From a virus, in the UHGV virus genome UHGV-0097493: a DNA stretch of 22,798 bases. One strand, given 5' to 3'. The position numbers were made by a program, and so were the translations under genes. Position 1 is the stretch's first letter. Each line of letters begins with the position of its first letter. Shown here piece after piece: positions 3,724-22,798 of this stretch. Below the pieces are notes generated by a model. It worked only from the letters and a program-made list of their open reading frames with translations, had not been told where the DNA came from and searched no databases.

Positions 3724-4806
3724 TTAGAACTGGTAAACCAGACCTACAGCAACGATGTCATCAGTATCAATACCAGCTGTTTTGGTAAACTTACTATCGT
3801 CAATTAAGTTGATTTTGTAATCAACAAAAGTGGACATGTTTTTATTAAAGTAGTAAGTAGCACCGACATCGACATACTTGACTAAGTCTCGGTCACCATG
3901 AACACCAAGGTCTTTACCTTTTGACTGAAGGTAAGCAACAGATGGGCGCAGACCGAAGTCAAACTGATATTGTGCTACTGCTTCAAAGTTTTGTGCTTTG
4001 TTTGCAATATGGTTATTACCAAAAACGGTCATATTCTGAGTTTCAGAATATGTGGTAGCCAGATAGATATTGTTCGCATCATATTTCAGGCCTGCAGCCC
4101 ATACTTCCGCATTTTTGCCGGAGGCATTGAATTTGCTCTTACCATAGGCGACCTGACCGTCAGTGCGATCTGATTTAGCATAGGTTGCACCCACGCCGAA
4201 TCCTTCATACTCATAAGTAGTGGAGAAACCGAAACCATCACCATTGGCTTCAGTTACGTCAGTGCGGTCATTTTTACCCTGATACTGAGCAGCAAAGTTC
4301 AGGCCATCGACCAGACCAAAGAAGTCGTTGTTACGATAAGTTGCAACACCAGTAGTGCGACCAGTCATGAACACATCTGTTTGGGTCCAGGTATCACCAC
4401 CGAATTCTGGCAGGACGTCAGTCCACGCACCGATGTCGTATGCTACACCGTAGTTACGGCCGTAATCGATTGAGCCGTAATCACCAAATTTCAGGCCTGC
4501 AAATGCAAGACGGGTTTTGTCTTTGGAAGAACCTTGAGATTCAGCGCGGTTGCCTTTGAATTCATATTCCCACTGACCGAAACCAGTCAGTTGATCGTTG
4601 ATTTGGGTTTCACCTTTGAAGCCAAGACGGGCATAAGTAGTATCACCATCATCTGCATCATTAGAGGAGAAGTAGTGCTTAGCATTAACTTTCCCGTACA
4701 GATCCAGCTTGTTACTGTCTTTATTATAAATTTCAGCTGCCTGAGCAGACATCGCCATCAGTACTGATGCAGCTACAGCAGAAATTGCCACTGTTAATTT
4801 TTTCAT
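3724..4806 (-). CDS. nmpC: Outer membrane general porin NmpC/Lc (OmpC/OmpF/PhoE family), intact, 360 aa
   Basis: Signal peptide [23 protein letters not shown] followed by [17 protein letters not shown]... The porin hallmark PEFGGDT and a C-terminal ...VGLVYQF (terminal Phe) are present. The sequence matches NmpC/Lc porin as recalled. RBS AAAGGG is upstream. Confidence 0.9.
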
Positions 4807-5379: not shown

Positions 5380-5595
5380 ATGAAATCCATGGATAAGTTA
5401 ACAACGGGTGTCGCCTATGGCACCTCAGCAGGTAGTGCCGGGTACTGGTTTTTACAGCTGCTAGATAAAGTCACGCCCTCACAGTGGGCGGCAATTGGAG
5501 TGCTGGGTAGCCTGGTATTTGGCCTGCTGACGTACCTGACAAACCTTTATTTCAAGATTAAAGAAGATAAGCGTAAGGCTGCGAGAGGTGAATAA
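5380..5595 (+). CDS. S: Class II holin / pinholin (S21-type) with dual translational starts (71 and 68 aa)
   Basis: [71 protein letters not shown] has two TM segments and a charged C-tail. The M1-K-S-M4 dual-start motif uses ATGs at 5380 and 5389. RBS GAGGTGGGG is upstream. It resembles phage 21 S21 / DLP12 EssD as recalled. Confidence 0.85.
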
Positions 5596-6092
5596 TGTCG
5601 CCATCATTACGCAAGGCTGTAGCAGCTGCTATTGGTGGTGGGGCTGTTGCCATAGCGTCTGTGCTCATCACTGGTCCGAGTGGTGACGATGGTCTGGAAG
5701 GTGTCAGCTACATACCATATAAAGATATTGTTGGTGTATGGACTGTATGTCACGGGCATACAGGAAAAGACATCATGCTCGGTAAAACGTATACCAAAGC
5801 AGAATGCAAAGCACTCTTGAATAAAGACCTTGCCACTGTCGCCAGACAAATTAACCCGTACATCGAAGTCGATATACCGGAAACAACGCGCGGCGCTCTT
5901 TACTCATTCGTTTACAACGTGGGTGCTGGCAATTTCAGAACATCGACGCTTCTTCGCAAAATAAACCAGGGCGATATCAAAGGCGCATGTGATCAGCTAC
6001 GGCGCTGGACATACGCTGGCGGTAATCAATGGAAAGGACTGATGACTCGCCGTGAGATTGAGCGTGAAGTCTGTTTGTGGGGGAAACAATGA
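5595..6092 (+). CDS. R: SAR endolysin (phage 21 R21-type lysozyme), 165 aa
   Basis: An N-terminal Gly/Ala-rich signal-anchor-release segment ([20 protein letters not shown]) is followed by a lysozyme domain (...[19 protein letters not shown]...). The start overlaps the holin stop (TAATG at 5593-5597). Confidence 0.88.
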
Positions 6093-6547
6093 GCAGAGTA
6101 ACCGCGATTATCTCCGCTCTGGTTATCTGCATCATCGTCTGCCTGTCATGGGCTGTTAATCATTACCGTGATAACGCCATTACCTACAAAGCCCAGCGCG
6201 ACAAAAATGTCAGAGAACTGGAGAAGGCGAACGCCACCATCGCTGACATGCGGAAGCGTCAACGTGATGTAGCAGAACTCGATGCAAGATACACAAAGGA
6301 GCTTGCTGATGCTAACGCGACTATCGAAAGTCTCCGTGCTGATGTTTCTGCTGGGCGTAAGCGCCTGCAAGTCGCCGCCACCTGTGCAAAGTCAACGACC
6401 GGAGCCAGCAGCATGGGCGATGGAGAAAGCCCAAGACTTACAGCAGATGCTGAACTCAATTATTACCGTCTCCGAAGTGGAATCGACAAGATAACCGCGC
6501 AGGTTAACTACCTGCAGGAATACATCAGGACGCAATGCCTGAAATAA
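6089..6547 (+). CDS. Rz: Rz i-spanin (inner-membrane spanin subunit), 152 aa
   Basis: N-terminal TM segment ([20 protein letters not shown]) followed by a coiled-coil-rich periplasmic domain. ATG 6089 overlaps the endolysin stop (ATGA). RBS GGGGGA is upstream. The tool's GTG 6077 is less likely. Confidence 0.8.
6309..6494 (+). CDS. Rz1: Rz1 o-spanin lipoprotein, embedded in the +1 frame inside Rz, 61 aa
   Basis: [20 protein letters not shown] has a lipobox (VSAC) with Cys at residue 20, followed by a proline-rich [13 protein letters not shown] mature segment. The ORF lies entirely within Rz in another frame, the classic Rz/Rz1 arrangement. Confidence 0.7.
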
Positions 6548-6578
6548 TTTTTTTGCAAATCACAAAGTCCATTTAATG

Positions 6579-6602
6579 AGCCTCGCGATGCGGGGCTTTT
6601 TT
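6579..6602 (+). terminator. Intrinsic terminator after Rz/Rz1
   Basis: GCC(T)CGC-GAT-GCGGGGC hairpin (6580-6596, one G-U pair) followed by TTTTTT (6597-6602), 32 nt after the Rz stop. Confidence 0.55.
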
Positions 6603-6746
6603 ATATCTGAATTTCACAGCGCATCTCACGCGCATATTAACGAGAGCCTTTCAGTAAGCGAGCCTGAGAAATGCCGTTATAGGTGGCGACCTCTCTCGGG
6701 CGGCTTTTCTGTGAGACAGGCTCACTTTCTAAAAGGTAAAGACGCT

Positions 6747-7244
6747 ATGAAAGCAATCACGCTTTTTAATACACCGATCCGTGTTGATGAATCAGGAATG
6801 ATCTGCCTCACTGATATGTGGAAAGCCAGTGGTAAAAGTGAATCTGAATCTCCGTACCACTACCTGCGAAACAAGCAGACCAAAGAGTTCTTAGCCGAGC
6901 TGGAGAAAAACCACGAATCTGTGGTTTTTACTGAGCGCGGTGTACACGGTGGAACATATGGCGGGAAGTTTGTTGCTTATGATTATGCAGCATGGCTAAA
7001 CCCCGGATTTAAATATGCAGCCTATAAAGTCCTGGATGACTACTTCACCGGAGAACTTCAGCATCGCAACAGCTTAAGTGCGCAGCTCAACATGAAATGT
7101 CATGAGTTTGACCAGAAGAAAGACATGGCGAGCTTCTGCGGACAAGGGCTGGCAGCATGGCGCTATACGAAGCCAGTGTTGGTCGCTGAGATTAACTCCC
7201 TGGCTAACCAGCTGCAGATTACGATCCCCGGGCTTCCGGGATGA
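6747..7244 (+). CDS. KilA-N domain protein (second copy in window), 165 aa
   Basis: MKAITLFNTPIRVDESGMICLTDMWKASGKSESESPYHYLRNKQTKEFLAELEKN...GGTYGGKFVAYDYAAWLNPGFKYAAYKVLDDYF fits the KilA-N pattern. The 57-codon in-frame extension upstream to 6576 spans the terminator and is not protein-like, so ATG 6747 is used. Confidence 0.65.
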   Translation: MKAITLFNTPIRVDESGMICLTDMWKASGKSESESPYHYLRNKQTKEFLAELEKNHESVVFTERGVHGGTYGGKFVAYDYAAWLNPGFKYAAYKVLDDYFTGELQHRNSLSAQLNMKCHEFDQKKDMASFCGQGLAAWRYTKPVLVAEINSLANQLQITIPGLPG

Positions 7245-18371: not shown

Positions 18372-19751
18372 ATGGCTACGTGGCAACAGGGTATTAATTC
18401 TGGTGGTTTTCTGGCTGGAATTGGTGCGCAAAACGAGAATGCGCCAAAGGCAAGCGACATTAATGCAACGCTTGGTCTGATTCGCGAAAACAATGAACTG
18501 GCTCGATCAGGTGCAAATAACGTTGGTCTGACCGCGTTACGTGGTCTGGCTGGAGTTGCTGATATTTATAAGCAGCAGCAACAGCAGGAACGTAAAGCGG
18601 CATTCCAGAAAGGTTATGCGGATGCTTATGCGTCCGGCGACAGGGAGCAGATGCGTAATCTTATTACAGCATTCCCCGAAGAGTTTGAGGAAGTTCGTAA
18701 AGGCATGGGGTATGTCGATGACGCCCAGCGGAATGATTTTGGCAATCTGGCGCTTAAGGCTCAGGTCGCTTCGTCGCTTGGTCCGGGTGCATTTGGCAGG
18801 TTCATGATGGATAACGAAAAGGAGATGCGTCGTTTAGGTATCCCTCCAGAAACTATTGCGGAAATGCAGGTTAATGACCCGCAGGGCTTCCAGCACTTCA
18901 CAGGTAATCTGGCACTATTTTCTCTCGGTCATGAGAAGTACTTCGATATCAAAGATCGAATGGAGGGGCGTCGACTTGAAGGAGAAAGAAATCAGTTAAC
19001 TGCTCGTGGTCAGGATATCACGATGCGCGGTCAGGATTTATCTGCTGCTACTGCACGGAGAGGTCAGGATTTAGCGATGCAGAGAGCATCAATGAAAGGG
19101 GCTGTTGGTAATAATGAGCGCACAGTTCAACTAGCAGACGGAAGAACTGTAACCGTAGGCGGGAAGCTTCATGGTGCAGGTGCTAACGCGTTCTACGAAG
19201 GAATAGACAATGAGGGGAACATGGTTCGCGTTCCTGCTGGCTCTATTGCTGCTCCGGCCACGTCGGCAGCAAGCGCGCAGAATTACGCAATGAAGAAAGA
19301 TCTTGATGCAATTTCTGGCGCATCAATTGACGATCTTGGCTTCATGACTGGCATTACAGGCTCTTCAGGTTCTCCTGCTCTTGGTGCAGATATTCGTAGC
19401 CGTGCCTCTGGTGGTGATCAGAGGAAACTATACAACGCTGCACAGCGAATCCAAGGAAAGATGCAGAATCAGGGCATTGCAGCAGCCAGAGACATGGGGG
19501 CATCTGGTATCAACACCGTTGCAGAAGCAAAGATGTATTTTCAAGGTATGCCACAGGTTGATTTCTCAAGCCCTGAAGCACTACAACAATCAATGCGCGA
19601 CATTCAGCAATATACCGACAATTACAACCAGCAATATAACGTTAATGTCGGTAATGGCGGGAAGAAATCATCAAGGCAACAGCCAGCTACTCAGCAATCA
19701 GCAGGAGGTAGCTACACGTCAAAATCAGGCATTCAATTTACGGTGGAATGA
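18372..19751 (+). CDS. Ejection protein (P22 gp20-like), 459 aa
   Basis: The position and the size (P22 gp20 ~471 aa) fit. Contains short RGQD tandem repeats. Confidence 0.65.
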
Positions 19752-21577
19752 TGAAAGTAACTGCAAACGGTAAGACATTTACCTTTCCTGATGGTACGAG
19801 CACCGAAGATATTGGCACCGCCATTGATGAGTATTTTGCTGGTCAGGCTGTTCAGCAACAAACAGTTAATCAGGCCAATAATGCACCAACACAGGAAGAA
19901 CCATCATTGATGCAACAAGCTGGCGATTGGCTCACTGGTGGTCAAAGTGCAGGGCAAATTGCAGAACAGGCTGGTCGTGGTCTGGTAAACATACCATTTG
20001 ACGTATTGCAGGGTGGCGCAAGTCTGATTAATGCAATCAGCCAGGGGCTTGGTGGTCACAAGGTTTTGGACGATGTCTATCGTCCAGTAGATCGACCAAC
20101 AGACCCTTATGCGCAAGCTGGAGAAACAATTGGCGGGTATTTAGTTCCAGGAGTTGGAACTGCAGGAAGCATGGCTATTGGATCACTGGCAGAAGCCGCA
20201 AACCAGAAAGGCGATTTCGCGCAAAATGCAGCCATAAACGCCGGAGTTAACCTTGCTGCTCAGGGTGTTCTTTCCGCAGCAGCAAAGGGAATAGGGCGTG
20301 GAATAACGGCTATAAAAGGCGATATCGCGCCAGAAGTAGCGAAAAAAATTGCCACCTCAGAATCGATGGGCGTGACACCAATGACATCTGATGTTATCCC
20401 GCCGAAAAATGCTTTCACTCGCGGCCTAACTCAGGATGCCGAGGGGGCTTTGCTCGGGACAGGCTCAAAGCGAGCTGAGCAGTATGCAAAAAGAAGTCAG
20501 CTAGTTAAAAAACAGCTTGAGAAATATGGTGAATATAGCCCATCAGTTGTTGTTGACGATCTGTATGGTTCTCTGAAGTCAAGGAAGGATTCGGCCGGAA
20601 GCGTTATTGAAGACATTACAGCCAAAATGGGAGACACACCAGTTGACACATCAAAATCTATTAAGGTTATCGACAACGTACTTACCAGAGCTAATAGGCT
20701 TGGGAAAGTGGCAAATAAGGATTTGATTCGCGGGTTATCCGATTTGCGAGAAGAACTTGCTAAACCAGATATAGATTTTGGTCTATTGAGAGAGTTGCGG
20801 TCAGCCTTGAGGGAAAGTATTCAGGGAGATGCCATGGTTTTTCCTAATAGCGCGAAAGCCGCAACTGATACCGTGGAGAGGGCAATGGGGGCAGATTTGA
20901 GGAATAACGCAGCGCGGTATTTGGGGGCTGGAGAGGCCGCCAGATACGTCAAGGCAAACTCTGACTACTCTAACGTCTTCAATAAGGTTCTTAATAAAAG
21001 GATTGCGAATAATCTCAACAAAGCTAAAAAAGAGTTTACTCCAGAGCTAATAAACAGTGTTGTATTCAGCAGAAAACCATCAGATATTAAGAGGATATGG
21101 CCAGCTCTTAGTGAAGATGGAAAGAACGCTATGCGTGCTGCTTATATCAGCAAGATTGCAGAAAAAGCAGGAGACTCGCCAACAAAATTTCTTACCGAGT
21201 TAAATAAGTTGAAGTCGCAATCTGACGGTCAGATCTATAACACGATATTCAGTGGGAGACACATGAAAGAGCTTGATGCTCTTCATGAAGTTCTACAGCA
21301 AACAGCAAGGTCGGACGCCGCAAATGTAGTAACACAGACAGGACAATCGCAAGCCAACAGGATAAGGACGATTGGCGCAACTGCGACTCTTGGCGTATCA
21401 ATGGGGCTTGAGGCTGGTTTCGGTGCAATGATGCGCTTGTATGAGTCAAAAGCAGCAAGGAATGCTCTCTTACGTTTGGCAAACACCAAAGCAGGAACGC
21501 CAGCCTATGAAAGAGCATTAAGTAACGCTGCAAATGCCATCAGACCGCTGCTTGCCACTGAGGCAACACAGCAGTGA
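19748..21577 (+). CDS. Ejection protein (P22 gp16-like), 609 aa
   Basis: The position after the gp20 homologue fits and the length is identical to P22 gp16 (609 aa). The start overlaps the upstream stop (ATGA). Confidence 0.65.
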
Positions 21578-21594
21578 CTAAATGCCATGGATGG

Positions 21595-21783
21595 TTATTT
21601 CCTTAGCACATGAAACAATGTTTGCTTTAATTCCACCCATACAATTATGACCACTATAGACAGACAAAAGAAACTGAATGCATTGGCATCACGATCGAAA
21701 CCTTCTCCGGCACTAAATCCGTAAAAGGTCATAAAAAATATAAAAATTGCGCACTTTGCAACGTTTACAAATTTTTTCTTCAC
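21595..21783 (-). CDS. Small two-TM membrane protein, 62 aa, distal gene of leftward operon
   Basis: GTG start preceded by a strong SD (AAGGAGG, 5-nt spacing). Two hydrophobic segments (AKCAIFIFFMTFYGF and FSFFCLSIVVIIVWV). Convergent with the gp16-like gene. Confidence 0.55.
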   Translation of the reverse strand: MKKKFVNVAKCAIFIFFMTFYGFSAGEGFDRDANAFSFFCLSIVVIIVWVELKQTLFHVLRK

Positions 21784-21843
21784 ACCAACCTCCTTAGTTT
21801 TGAGCAGGATACCAGATGATAATGTGTCGCTTCCTAAAGGATA

Positions 21844-22485
21844 TCAAAGCAACGGGATTTCAAGGTAAACTGCGGTTGCCAAAATACTAACATCTTCATT
21901 TCTAACAAGAATATTAGGATACATTGGGTTTAGGGATACTAGGTTTGTCTCTATTTCACCAATGTAAACCTGTTTGAAGCTCAATATTTGCTCTTTATCC
22001 AATGATGCTATTACATAATCTTTGCTTTTAGCTTTTACTAGAGGGCTGAACGTGACAACCGATCCTCTGGGAAAGCTAATACCTGAACTTGTAGTCATAG
22101 CTTCACCTTCAATAGTCAATGCAAATGCAGAGTCACCAACATTGTATATTGCCGGATGAAATCTAGACGATGAATGTTCACCTGTGTTTAGGTAATGCAT
22201 AACTTCATCTAGTTTGAGGATTGGTATTTGCTTTACCAGAACGTCAGGCATGACGTTTTTTGTTCCCGGACCCTGACCTTCACCTAGAGCTAACCACTCA
22301 GCTGTAGTACCTAATGCGTTGGCTAATGCCTGCAATACCCGAAGCCGTGGTTTAGCCTCACCACCCTCGTATGCAGCTATTTGACGTTGAACAACACCAG
22401 CTAATTTTGACAACTGCGCCTGCGTCATACCCCTGGACTGTCTTGCCAGAGATACTCTTGATGGGAATTGATCGTCAAAATTCAT
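21844..22485 (-). CDS. CI/LexA-like repressor: N-terminal HTH_XRE plus C-terminal S24-peptidase-fold domain with Ala in place of the nucleophilic Ser, 213 aa
   Basis: The HTH is LARQSRGMTQAQLSKLAGVVQRQIAAYEGGEAKP. The C-terminal domain aligns by eye to lambda CI (recalled [28 protein letters not shown]...FTFKKL...LNPQYPMIP) as VGDSAFALTIEGEAMTTSSGISFPRG...LSFKQ...LNPMYPNIL. Confidence 0.8.
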   Translation of the reverse strand: MNFDDQFPSRVSLARQSRGMTQAQLSKLAGVVQRQIAAYEGGEAKPRLRVLQALANALGTTAEWLALGEGQGPGTKNVMPDVLVKQIPILKLDEVMHYLNTGEHSSSRFHPAIYNVGDSAFALTIEGEAMTTSSGISFPRGSVVTFSPLVKAKSKDYVIASLDKEQILSFKQVYIGEIETNLVSLNPMYPNILVRNEDVSILATAVYLEIPLL

Positions 22486-22506
22486 TAGTTCACCATAAAA
22501 AATTCA

Positions 22507-22536
22507 TTGACTCATGCTGAGTGTGAGTGAATAATC
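22507..22536 (+). promoter_or_regulatory. Candidate sigma70 promoter for the rightward Arc-like gene, within the divergent control region
   Basis: TTGACT (22507-22512), 18-bp spacer, TG-n-ATAATC (22528-22536). Inverted and direct GAGTG-type repeats overlap it (ACTCA-TGC-TGAGT; GAGTGTGAGTG), suggesting operators. Confidence 0.4.
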
Positions 22537-22584
22537 AAACTACAAAAAGTGAGATTATGAGTTTTTTAAAAACAGGAGTGCATA

Positions 22585-22773
22585 ATGACTGAAAAGATAT
22601 CTTCCATCAAGCCGCGTCAGGTTCGTTTTACAGAAAAGGTTGATTCACATATCCGCGAATCAGCAAAAAGATGCCATAGGTCAATTCAGGCAGAGATAGC
22701 TTATCGAATGGAGTTATTGATGAAACTTGAGGCAAAGGGCGATGTGAACCGCCCCGGGAATCCTGGAGACTAA
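22585..22773 (+). CDS. Arc/Mnt-like ribbon-helix-helix (CopG-family) regulator, 62 aa
   Basis: RQVRFTEKVDSHIRESAKRCHRSIQAEIAYRMELLMKLE fits the RHH pattern (beta strand then two helices; compare recalled Arc ...FNLRWPREVLDLVRKVAEENGRSVNSEIYQRVMESFKKE). RBS AGGAG lies 7 nt upstream. An RBS-like AGAAAGAGG at 22785-22793 suggests another gene starts just beyond the window. Confidence 0.6.
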   Translation: MTEKISSIKPRQVRFTEKVDSHIRESAKRCHRSIQAEIAYRMELLMKLEAKGDVNRPGNPGD

Positions 22774-22798
22774 ACTTCCTGAGAAAGAGGTAAACAGG

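Follow-up and report, generated by a model that had tools for sequence, protein, structure and literature searches.

A prophage HTH-S24 repressor with alanine in place of the serine nucleophile, a probable SOS-blind and Mnt-analogous regulator of a P22-like antirepressor operon

In self-cleaving proteins of the S24 type, the serine nucleophile is Ser149 in lambda CI, Ser119 in LexA and Ser60 in UmuD, and the general base is Lys192 in lambda CI and Lys156 in LexA. The LexA S119A and lambda CI S149A variants fold and bind DNA normally and are non-cleavable. S24 cleavage requires the Ser-Lys dyad acting on an Ala-Gly bond (PMC13148647, PMC3121763). The repressors of the Gifsy phages (GfoR and GtgR), coliphage 186 and N15 are not cleaved during the SOS response, and the phages that encode them carry antirepressors (PMC3121763). 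These repressors are short (~136 aa) and devoid of a C-terminal domain; they serve as primary immunity repressors and are the targets of antirepressors, which are themselves LexA-controlled. In phage P22, the ribbon-helix-helix protein Mnt (immI) is the maintenance repressor of Pant. Genes 16 and 9 of P22 flank a variable segment, the "ant moron", in which mnt is located (PMC2629481). The "ant moron" of E. coli HS (HS-1) was described in 2008 as having no arc and must control its antirepressor differently from P22 (Villafane et al. 2008, PMC2629481).

We analysed a 22,798-nt stretch of viral DNA (UHGV-0097493, hereafter the window), which corresponds to the late region of a P22-like prophage with terminase, P22 portal, P22 coat and injection protein genes. 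The late region ends with a gp16 homologue (19748-21577), and the next gene encodes the repressor studied here (Table 1); in intact relatives, this gene is located between the gp16 homologue and the tailspike gene. The slot is the one used by mnt in P22, and the presumed shared job is to keep the antirepressor off in the lysogen (PMC2629481). As with mnt, an Arc-like gene and then antirepressor genes are transcribed away from it. Unlike Mnt, the protein combines HTH_3 and S24 domains, and a separate Arc/Mnt-family gene is present in intact relatives. The two-domain architecture is that of lambda CI, P22 C2 and 434 CI (MEROPS family S24), lambda CI being the best match by both sequence and fold, but the nucleophile Ser is replaced by Ala and Ala-Gly by Val-Met. 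The gene also belongs to a late-operon "ant moron" instead of immC and faces an Arc-like/antirepressor operon instead of cro. The substitution is the same, in the same column, as in the S119A LexA structures (1jhh, 1jhc) and the Ind- type S149A mutant of lambda CI; those are laboratory mutants, whereas here the alanine occurs in nature, is fixed among the copies sequenced and comes with a lost cleavage site. In contrast to the Gifsy, 186 and N15 repressors, the S24 fold is kept, no LexA box was found, and antirepressor genes appear to be under the control of the protein, which does not itself appear to be an antirepressor target.

Table 1. Coordinates of the repressor gene, its key residues and the adjacent features (positions in the window)
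Feature	Position	Strand	Evidence
HTH_3 + Peptidase_S24 repressor gene, 213 aa (stop included in coordinates)	21844..22485	-	ORF list, Pfam
Cro/C1-type helix-turn-helix DNA-binding domain, residues 14-65	22291..22446	-	Pfam HTH_3
S24 (LexA/CI-type) C-terminal domain, residues 108-206	21868..22164	-	Pfam Peptidase_S24
Val95-Met96, aligned to Ala-Gly (Cys-Gly in UmuD) scissile bond	22198..22203	-	MAFFT columns
Ala129, codon GCT, serine-nucleophile column	22099..22101	-	phmmer, MAFFT
Lys171, codon AAA, general-base lysine column	21973..21975	-	phmmer, MAFFT
62-aa hydrophobic ORF, phrog_21338	21595..21783	-	downstream of repressor, same strand
Divergent control region, candidate operators	22486..22584	.	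promoter scan, repeats, conservation
Small Arc/ribbon-helix-helix-like gene, first of rightward operon	22585..22773	+	weak Pfam, phrog_10182
IS3-family insertion sequence, left end	22745..22798	+	copy number, junction alignment

Two other genes of the window were recorded in passing. A 360-aa Gram-negative porin is encoded on the minus strand at 3724-4806 (Pfam Porin_1, E 2e-151), opposite to and just upstream of the ORFs at 5595-7244, the place expected for lysis genes; the gene is a porin moron carried by the prophage, such as lambdoid prophages also have. Immediately ahead of the terminase genes, the plus strand (6576-7244) encodes a protein with KilA-N and ORF11CD3 domains, a domain type that antirepressor-like proteins also have.

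The repressor is identical to RefSeq WP_001008290.1. Its helix-turn-helix domain scored above the Pfam gathering cut-off (HTH_3, PF01381, E 9e-13) and matched the N-terminal domains of 434 and P22 C2 repressors in the PDB, and its C-terminal domain was assigned to Peptidase_S24 (PF00717, E 1.3e-12) with 47.9 bits against a cut-off of 23.3. No Arc/ribbon-helix-helix match (Pfam Arc, PF03869) was found in this protein. Among PDB sequences, the best phmmer match was lambda CI (E 1e-7). An AlphaFold2 model built on 23 family sequences had a mean pLDDT of 86; its C-terminal domain superposed on that of lambda CI (1f39) with an rmsd of 1.8 Å over 98 columns and a TM score of 0.84. LexA and UmuD' came next among the structure matches, which included the S119A LexA entries. 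The gene is annotated "repressor protein C2" in phage JEP4 (JEP4_14, L001:6245-6814) with a shortened start giving 570 nt. The annotated start falls inside HTH helix 1, and the full 642-nt ORF is present in JEP4.

Alignment by phmmer with the lambda CI chains of the PDB placed the query segment iEGEAMTt opposite vEGNSMTt, which contains Ser149, and sFKqv opposite tFKkl. Lys192 is the first K in the latter segment, which reads tFAkl in the K192A chain 2hnf. In MAFFT alignments, lambda CI residues A111, G112, S149 and K192 corresponded to V95, M96, A129 and K171 of the repressor. The columns were concordant between the sets aligned (lambda CI; 128 relatives; LexA, UmuD, lambda CI and JEP4 C2). 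Ala129 was found opposite the nucleophile Ser of lambda CI, LexA, UmuD and P22-type C2. The S24 column was placed by PDB, MAFFT and fold alignments, which all agree. The initial annotation had proposed that the nucleophile position is occupied by Ala while the lysine is retained, within an otherwise well conserved motif. The alignments bear out each of these points: Ala, not Ser, stands in the Ser149 column in the phmmer/PDB comparison, in every MAFFT alignment and in the fold superposition; Lys171 stands in the Lys192 column by phmmer/PDB and MAFFT; and the motif DSAF.L.-EG--M is conserved as in lambda CI, P22 C2 and 434 CI.

The cleavage site itself was also missing. No AG or CG dipeptide was found in the repressor at the scissile-bond columns or within three columns on either side, and in the model a helix formed by residues 92-101 spans Val95-Met96. 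Because both the Ser nucleophile and the Ala-Gly bond are lost, S24 enzymology predicts that the repressor cannot self-cleave when RecA filaments form, and DNA damage would probably be unable to switch it off. We infer from sequence and model that the S24 fold has been kept and catalysis lost, making this domain a putative pseudo-peptidase. The missing Ala-Gly bond, which the initial annotation had not mentioned, strengthens its prediction of non-cleavage.

The frequency of serine loss was determined in 103 usable 50%-identity clusters with an S24 motif, drawn from the best 150 matches among 1.84 billion cluster representatives and from 22 closer relatives. The nucleophile column contained Ser in 77 clusters, Ala in 19 (18%) and another residue in 7. 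Ser, Lys and Ala-Gly were found together in only 18 of the 103, and 59 of the 77 Ser-bearing relatives had no recognisable Ala-Gly. The relative P0016, for example, combines Ala-Gly, Ser and Lys, and P0003 has Ser and Lys without Ala-Gly. The general-base lysine was replaced by Arg in 11 of 19 Ala-type versus 13 of 77 Ser-type clusters (Fisher p 6e-4, uncorrected for relatedness), which is consistent with a dyad under relaxed constraint in the Ala types. Loss of Ser and loss of Ala-Gly were not significantly associated (Ala-Gly in 2/19 Ala versus 18/77 Ser clusters, p 0.35), since most Ser relatives are also without Ala-Gly. On these alignments, pseudo-peptidase S24 repressors are common and the repressor of the window is one instance, less unusual than the initial annotation implied. 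Counting against an SOS-blind reading, the family may never have depended on canonical cleavage, in which case the change from Ser to Ala may be of little functional consequence.

The repressor belongs to a close clade of six sequences (100% bootstrap; neighbour-joining, 200 bootstraps), one member of which, P0003, has Ser whereas the others are all of the Ala type; this too weighs against the SOS-blind reading. P0003 was grouped with the subclade of the window in 56% of the replicates, and an all-Ala clade without P0003 was recovered in 28%. This branching firmly supports neither a single origin of Ala nor a reversion to Ser in P0003.

On its right-hand side, the repressor gene is separated by a 99-bp spacer from the divergent small gene. 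The spacer contains a sigma-70-like rightward promoter (TTGACT at 22507-22512, 17 nt, AATAAT at 22530-22535); in the promoter scan this candidate scored no better than shuffled sequence. Its -35 hexamer is overlapped by the palindrome ACTCATGCTGAGT (22510-22522), and inverted arms of 19 nt bracket the candidate promoter (22496-22514 and 22550-22568). The blocks TTGACTCAT and GTGAGATTATGAGTT are conserved in homologous modules. The palindrome and inverted arms are candidate operators only, whose half-site could not be fixed from the sequence. No match to the LexA box consensus at three mismatches or fewer and no CTG-N10-CAG was found in 22486-22584, which argues against LexA control of the rightward operon.

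The small gene encodes 57 aa in intact relatives (L002:6086-6259 is an example) and a 62-aa product in the window. Its Pfam matches were below the cut-off (ParD_like, E 6e-4; Arc, E 0.014), and a weak match to AmrZ had an E value of 0.8. In intact relatives (JEP4, O111:H8, HS and E272), it is followed by a Bro-N/P22_AR_C antirepressor gene, a gene for a phrog_1726 antirepressor-family protein, a gene for a 73-aa protein, a convergent true Arc/Mnt-family gene and the tailspike gene. The Arc/Mnt-family gene (Pfam Arc, E 6e-15; L002:8012-8299 on the minus strand, L001:8920-9177, L015:1953-2198) is found at the far end of the antirepressor operon, not beside the antirepressor promoter.

In the window, the antirepressor operon is interrupted after the small gene by an IS3-family element. 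A 57-nt query (22742-22798) matched 12,321 places in 3,266 E. coli genomes, and 33 copies of this left end were found in E. coli 95-3192; in locus L012 it lies directly upstream of an IS3-family transposase gene, and the window ends just before the transposase start codon. The insertion replaces the last 4 codons of the small gene, stop included (...KGDVVIQ-stop in intact copies, ...KGDVNRPGNPGD-stop in the window). It leaves the repressor gene intact and parts the promoter from the downstream sequence. Other lesions, independent of this insertion, were seen in two relatives: in E. coli HS the second antirepressor gene is broken by another IS3-family element (L003:7758-9559), and in E. coli E272 a deletion has left a replication gene immediately next to the repressor gene (L004:5200-6705).

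On the other side of the repressor gene, the 62-aa hydrophobic ORF is possibly co-transcribed with it and may correspond to "orf62" of phage L. The DNA of this ORF is 99% identical in E. coli phage phiv205-1 and Salmonella phage UPF_BP1. In about half of the E. coli genomes, similarity to the window begins only at ~21780-21795, which marks a mosaic junction a short way past the end of the repressor gene.

To place the gene in a wider context, we compared ten places encoding a homologue (JEP4, O111:H8, HS, E272, P0003, P0005, P0006, P0007, P0016/P0020 and Providencia phage PSTNGR2lys). In all ten, the homologue faces a gene of 55-67 aa followed by Bro-N, P22_AR_N, P22_AR_C or pRha genes; the two small genes that were scanned were Arc-like at sub-threshold scores. 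The cassette is common to Ser types (P0003, 81% identity; P0006, P0007, P0016 and P0020, 42-49%) and Ala types (P0005, 72%), and occurs in P22-like phages, next to lambda-type tail genes and in other phage types; in a Leclercia P22-like prophage the homologue again lies between genes 16 and 9. The PSTNGR2lys homologue (41% identity, L013:2282-2998) has Ala in the nucleophile column (IRDPAME) and Arg in the lysine column (YVFRRL), and its cassette consists of the HTH-S24 gene, a 55-aa Arc-like gene and two Bro-N genes, with a tail-fibre gene adjoining. The same module thus exists without both Ser and Lys, which argues that catalysis is dispensable for it. This linkage, which holds across phage types, is the chief reason to regard the protein as a regulator of the antirepressor operon beside it. 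Among isolated phages, the family was found in only 2 of 50,697 phage records (E <= 1e-20). Our literature search found no description of this protein family or of natural Ser-to-Ala S24 repressors in ant modules, and published accounts of the Stx phage Phi24B, phage L and a Francisella S24 repressor mention no such regulator.

Collectively, the domains, the residues in the catalytic columns, the fixed Ala, the purifying selection and the conserved gene order that we observed favour, as the likeliest reading, an SOS-blind repressor, analogous to Mnt, that acts on the antirepressor operon and keeps a pseudo-peptidase S24 domain for oligomerisation. The HTH domains would bind the candidate operators of the divergent control region, and the dead S24 domain would hold a dimer or higher oligomer, as the S24 fold does in CI and LexA. 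Bound repressor would shut the rightward promoter and with it, in intact relatives, expression of the small Arc-like protein and of one or two antirepressors. RecA filaments would trigger no self-cleavage, so that the antirepressor would stay silent in the lysogen, SOS included, and induction by SOS would fall to the canonical immC repressor, which is cleavable. Predicted in this scheme are the absence of cleavage, the DNA that the protein binds and its repression of the antirepressor operon. Without a cleavable repressor or a LexA box, the antirepressor operon appears insulated from SOS. JEP4 has a separate canonical immC region (C2/cro/c1), and its genuine C2 (L011:9015-9665) carries all three self-cleavage features (SAG|C, GDSM and FKK). 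The suggestion that the protein is a Mnt-like maintenance repressor stands as a functional analogy, by conserved gene order, but not as kinship: the fold is HTH_3, not ribbon-helix-helix.

Several other explanations were weighed against this one, beginning with the caveat of the initial annotation that the alanine could be a sequencing or variant artefact. If the true codon were TCT, the protein would be an ordinary self-cleaving repressor; a single base separates GCT from TCT, and TCT is used by the 81% relative P0003 (another Ser relative, P0007, has TCA). However, the translation is identical in the independently sequenced phage JEP4, E. coli HS and an O111:H8 strain, with the same GCT codon, and the E272 copy has the same RefSeq accession (WP_001008290.1). 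The gene is carried by 28 complete E. coli genomes at 98.6-99.7% nucleotide identity, relatives with 92%, 76% and 72% identity also have Ala (GCT again in the 72% relative P0005), and the Ala-Gly site is missing too. The caveat is thereby refuted, and we give an artefact practically no credence. A decaying, functionless relic in a defective prophage could be suspected from the IS3-family insertion that breaks the operon copy in the window and from the lesions near the gene in HS and E272. Against this, the frame is intact, the four copies checked, one of them from an isolated phage (JEP4), all encode the same protein, and the model is confidently folded. The window and HS genes differ by 9 synonymous and 0 non-synonymous changes; in comparisons with P0003 (81%) and P0005 (72%), synonymous sites were saturated and dN in the C-terminal domain was 0.18-0.26, indicating that the dead domain has long been kept. 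Selection on the gene is purifying, and these synonymous and non-synonymous counts speak against pseudogene decay; we regard a relic as very unlikely. A shade less likely still is that the protein is cleaved by other means, either by itself, through another nucleophile or a non-canonical site, or in trans by a co-resident active S24 protein. Lys171 is retained, four hydroxyl residues directly follow Ala129 in EGEAMTTSSG (Thr131, Thr132, Ser133 and Ser134), and the many Ser/Lys relatives without Ala-Gly hint at non-canonical sites. It is nevertheless established that the single change from Ser to Ala abolishes cleavage in LexA and lambda CI. Neither Ala-Gly nor Cys-Gly is available at or near the aligned site, which helix 92-101 of the model spans, and the excess of Lys to Arg replacements in Ala types (11/19 versus 13/77) is what would be expected if the dyad were disused.

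The target of repression leaves more room for doubt. One alternative is a second immunity repressor with other promoters as its targets, which the "repressor protein C2" annotation in JEP4 implies; another is that the dead S24 pocket receives a different signal for inactivation, for instance an antirepressor or a ligand. Non-cleavable repressors can be the targets of antirepressors (PMC3121763), and oligomerisation alone does not explain the retained Lys and the conserved pocket motif. Intact modules also have their separate Arc/Mnt-family gene; this gene, located by the tailspike gene, could be the real maintenance repressor of the antirepressor, leaving another role to the HTH-S24 protein. 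We consider such a different role unlikely: JEP4 has its canonical immC C2/cro/c1 region elsewhere, and the tight linkage to the small gene and antirepressor genes, whatever the phage type, points to local control. A broader proposal, about as doubtful, is that the HTH-S24/Arc-like/antirepressor cassette is a portable second induction switch with SOS-sensitive and SOS-blind alleles. P0016, with Ala-Gly, Ser and Lys, would be the candidate SOS-sensitive allele; many homologues keep Ser and Lys but not Ala-Gly, and Ala is found in this clade and in others, in some cases together with Arg for Lys. If the complete forms were RecA-cleavable, DNA damage would release antirepressors able to cross-induce co-resident prophages, and Ser-to-Ala alleles would be natural "off" versions of the circuit. 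Alternatively, the dead pocket of the Ala alleles could now serve as the receiver of some other signal.

With the repressor taken as the likely SOS-blind keeper of the antirepressor operon, a protein widespread in E. coli and Salmonella prophages is predicted to be wrongly treated as a LexA-like self-cleaving regulator. RefSeq labels it "LexA family transcriptional regulator" or "helix-turn-helix domain-containing protein". As loss of catalytic residues is common among S24 repressors (~18% of related clusters), the finding refines annotation and overturns nothing. It also offers a possible answer to the question raised in 2008 of how the HS-type "ant moron" controls its antirepressor without the arc/mnt pair of P22. 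The 57-aa small gene may be the missed Arc analogue of that moron, and the repressor together with this previously unannotated Arc-like gene would be a plausible solution. Antirepressors can induce non-cognate prophages, so whether their keeper responds to SOS affects cross-talk between prophages in strains that carry several of them, including Shiga-toxin strains such as O111:H8.
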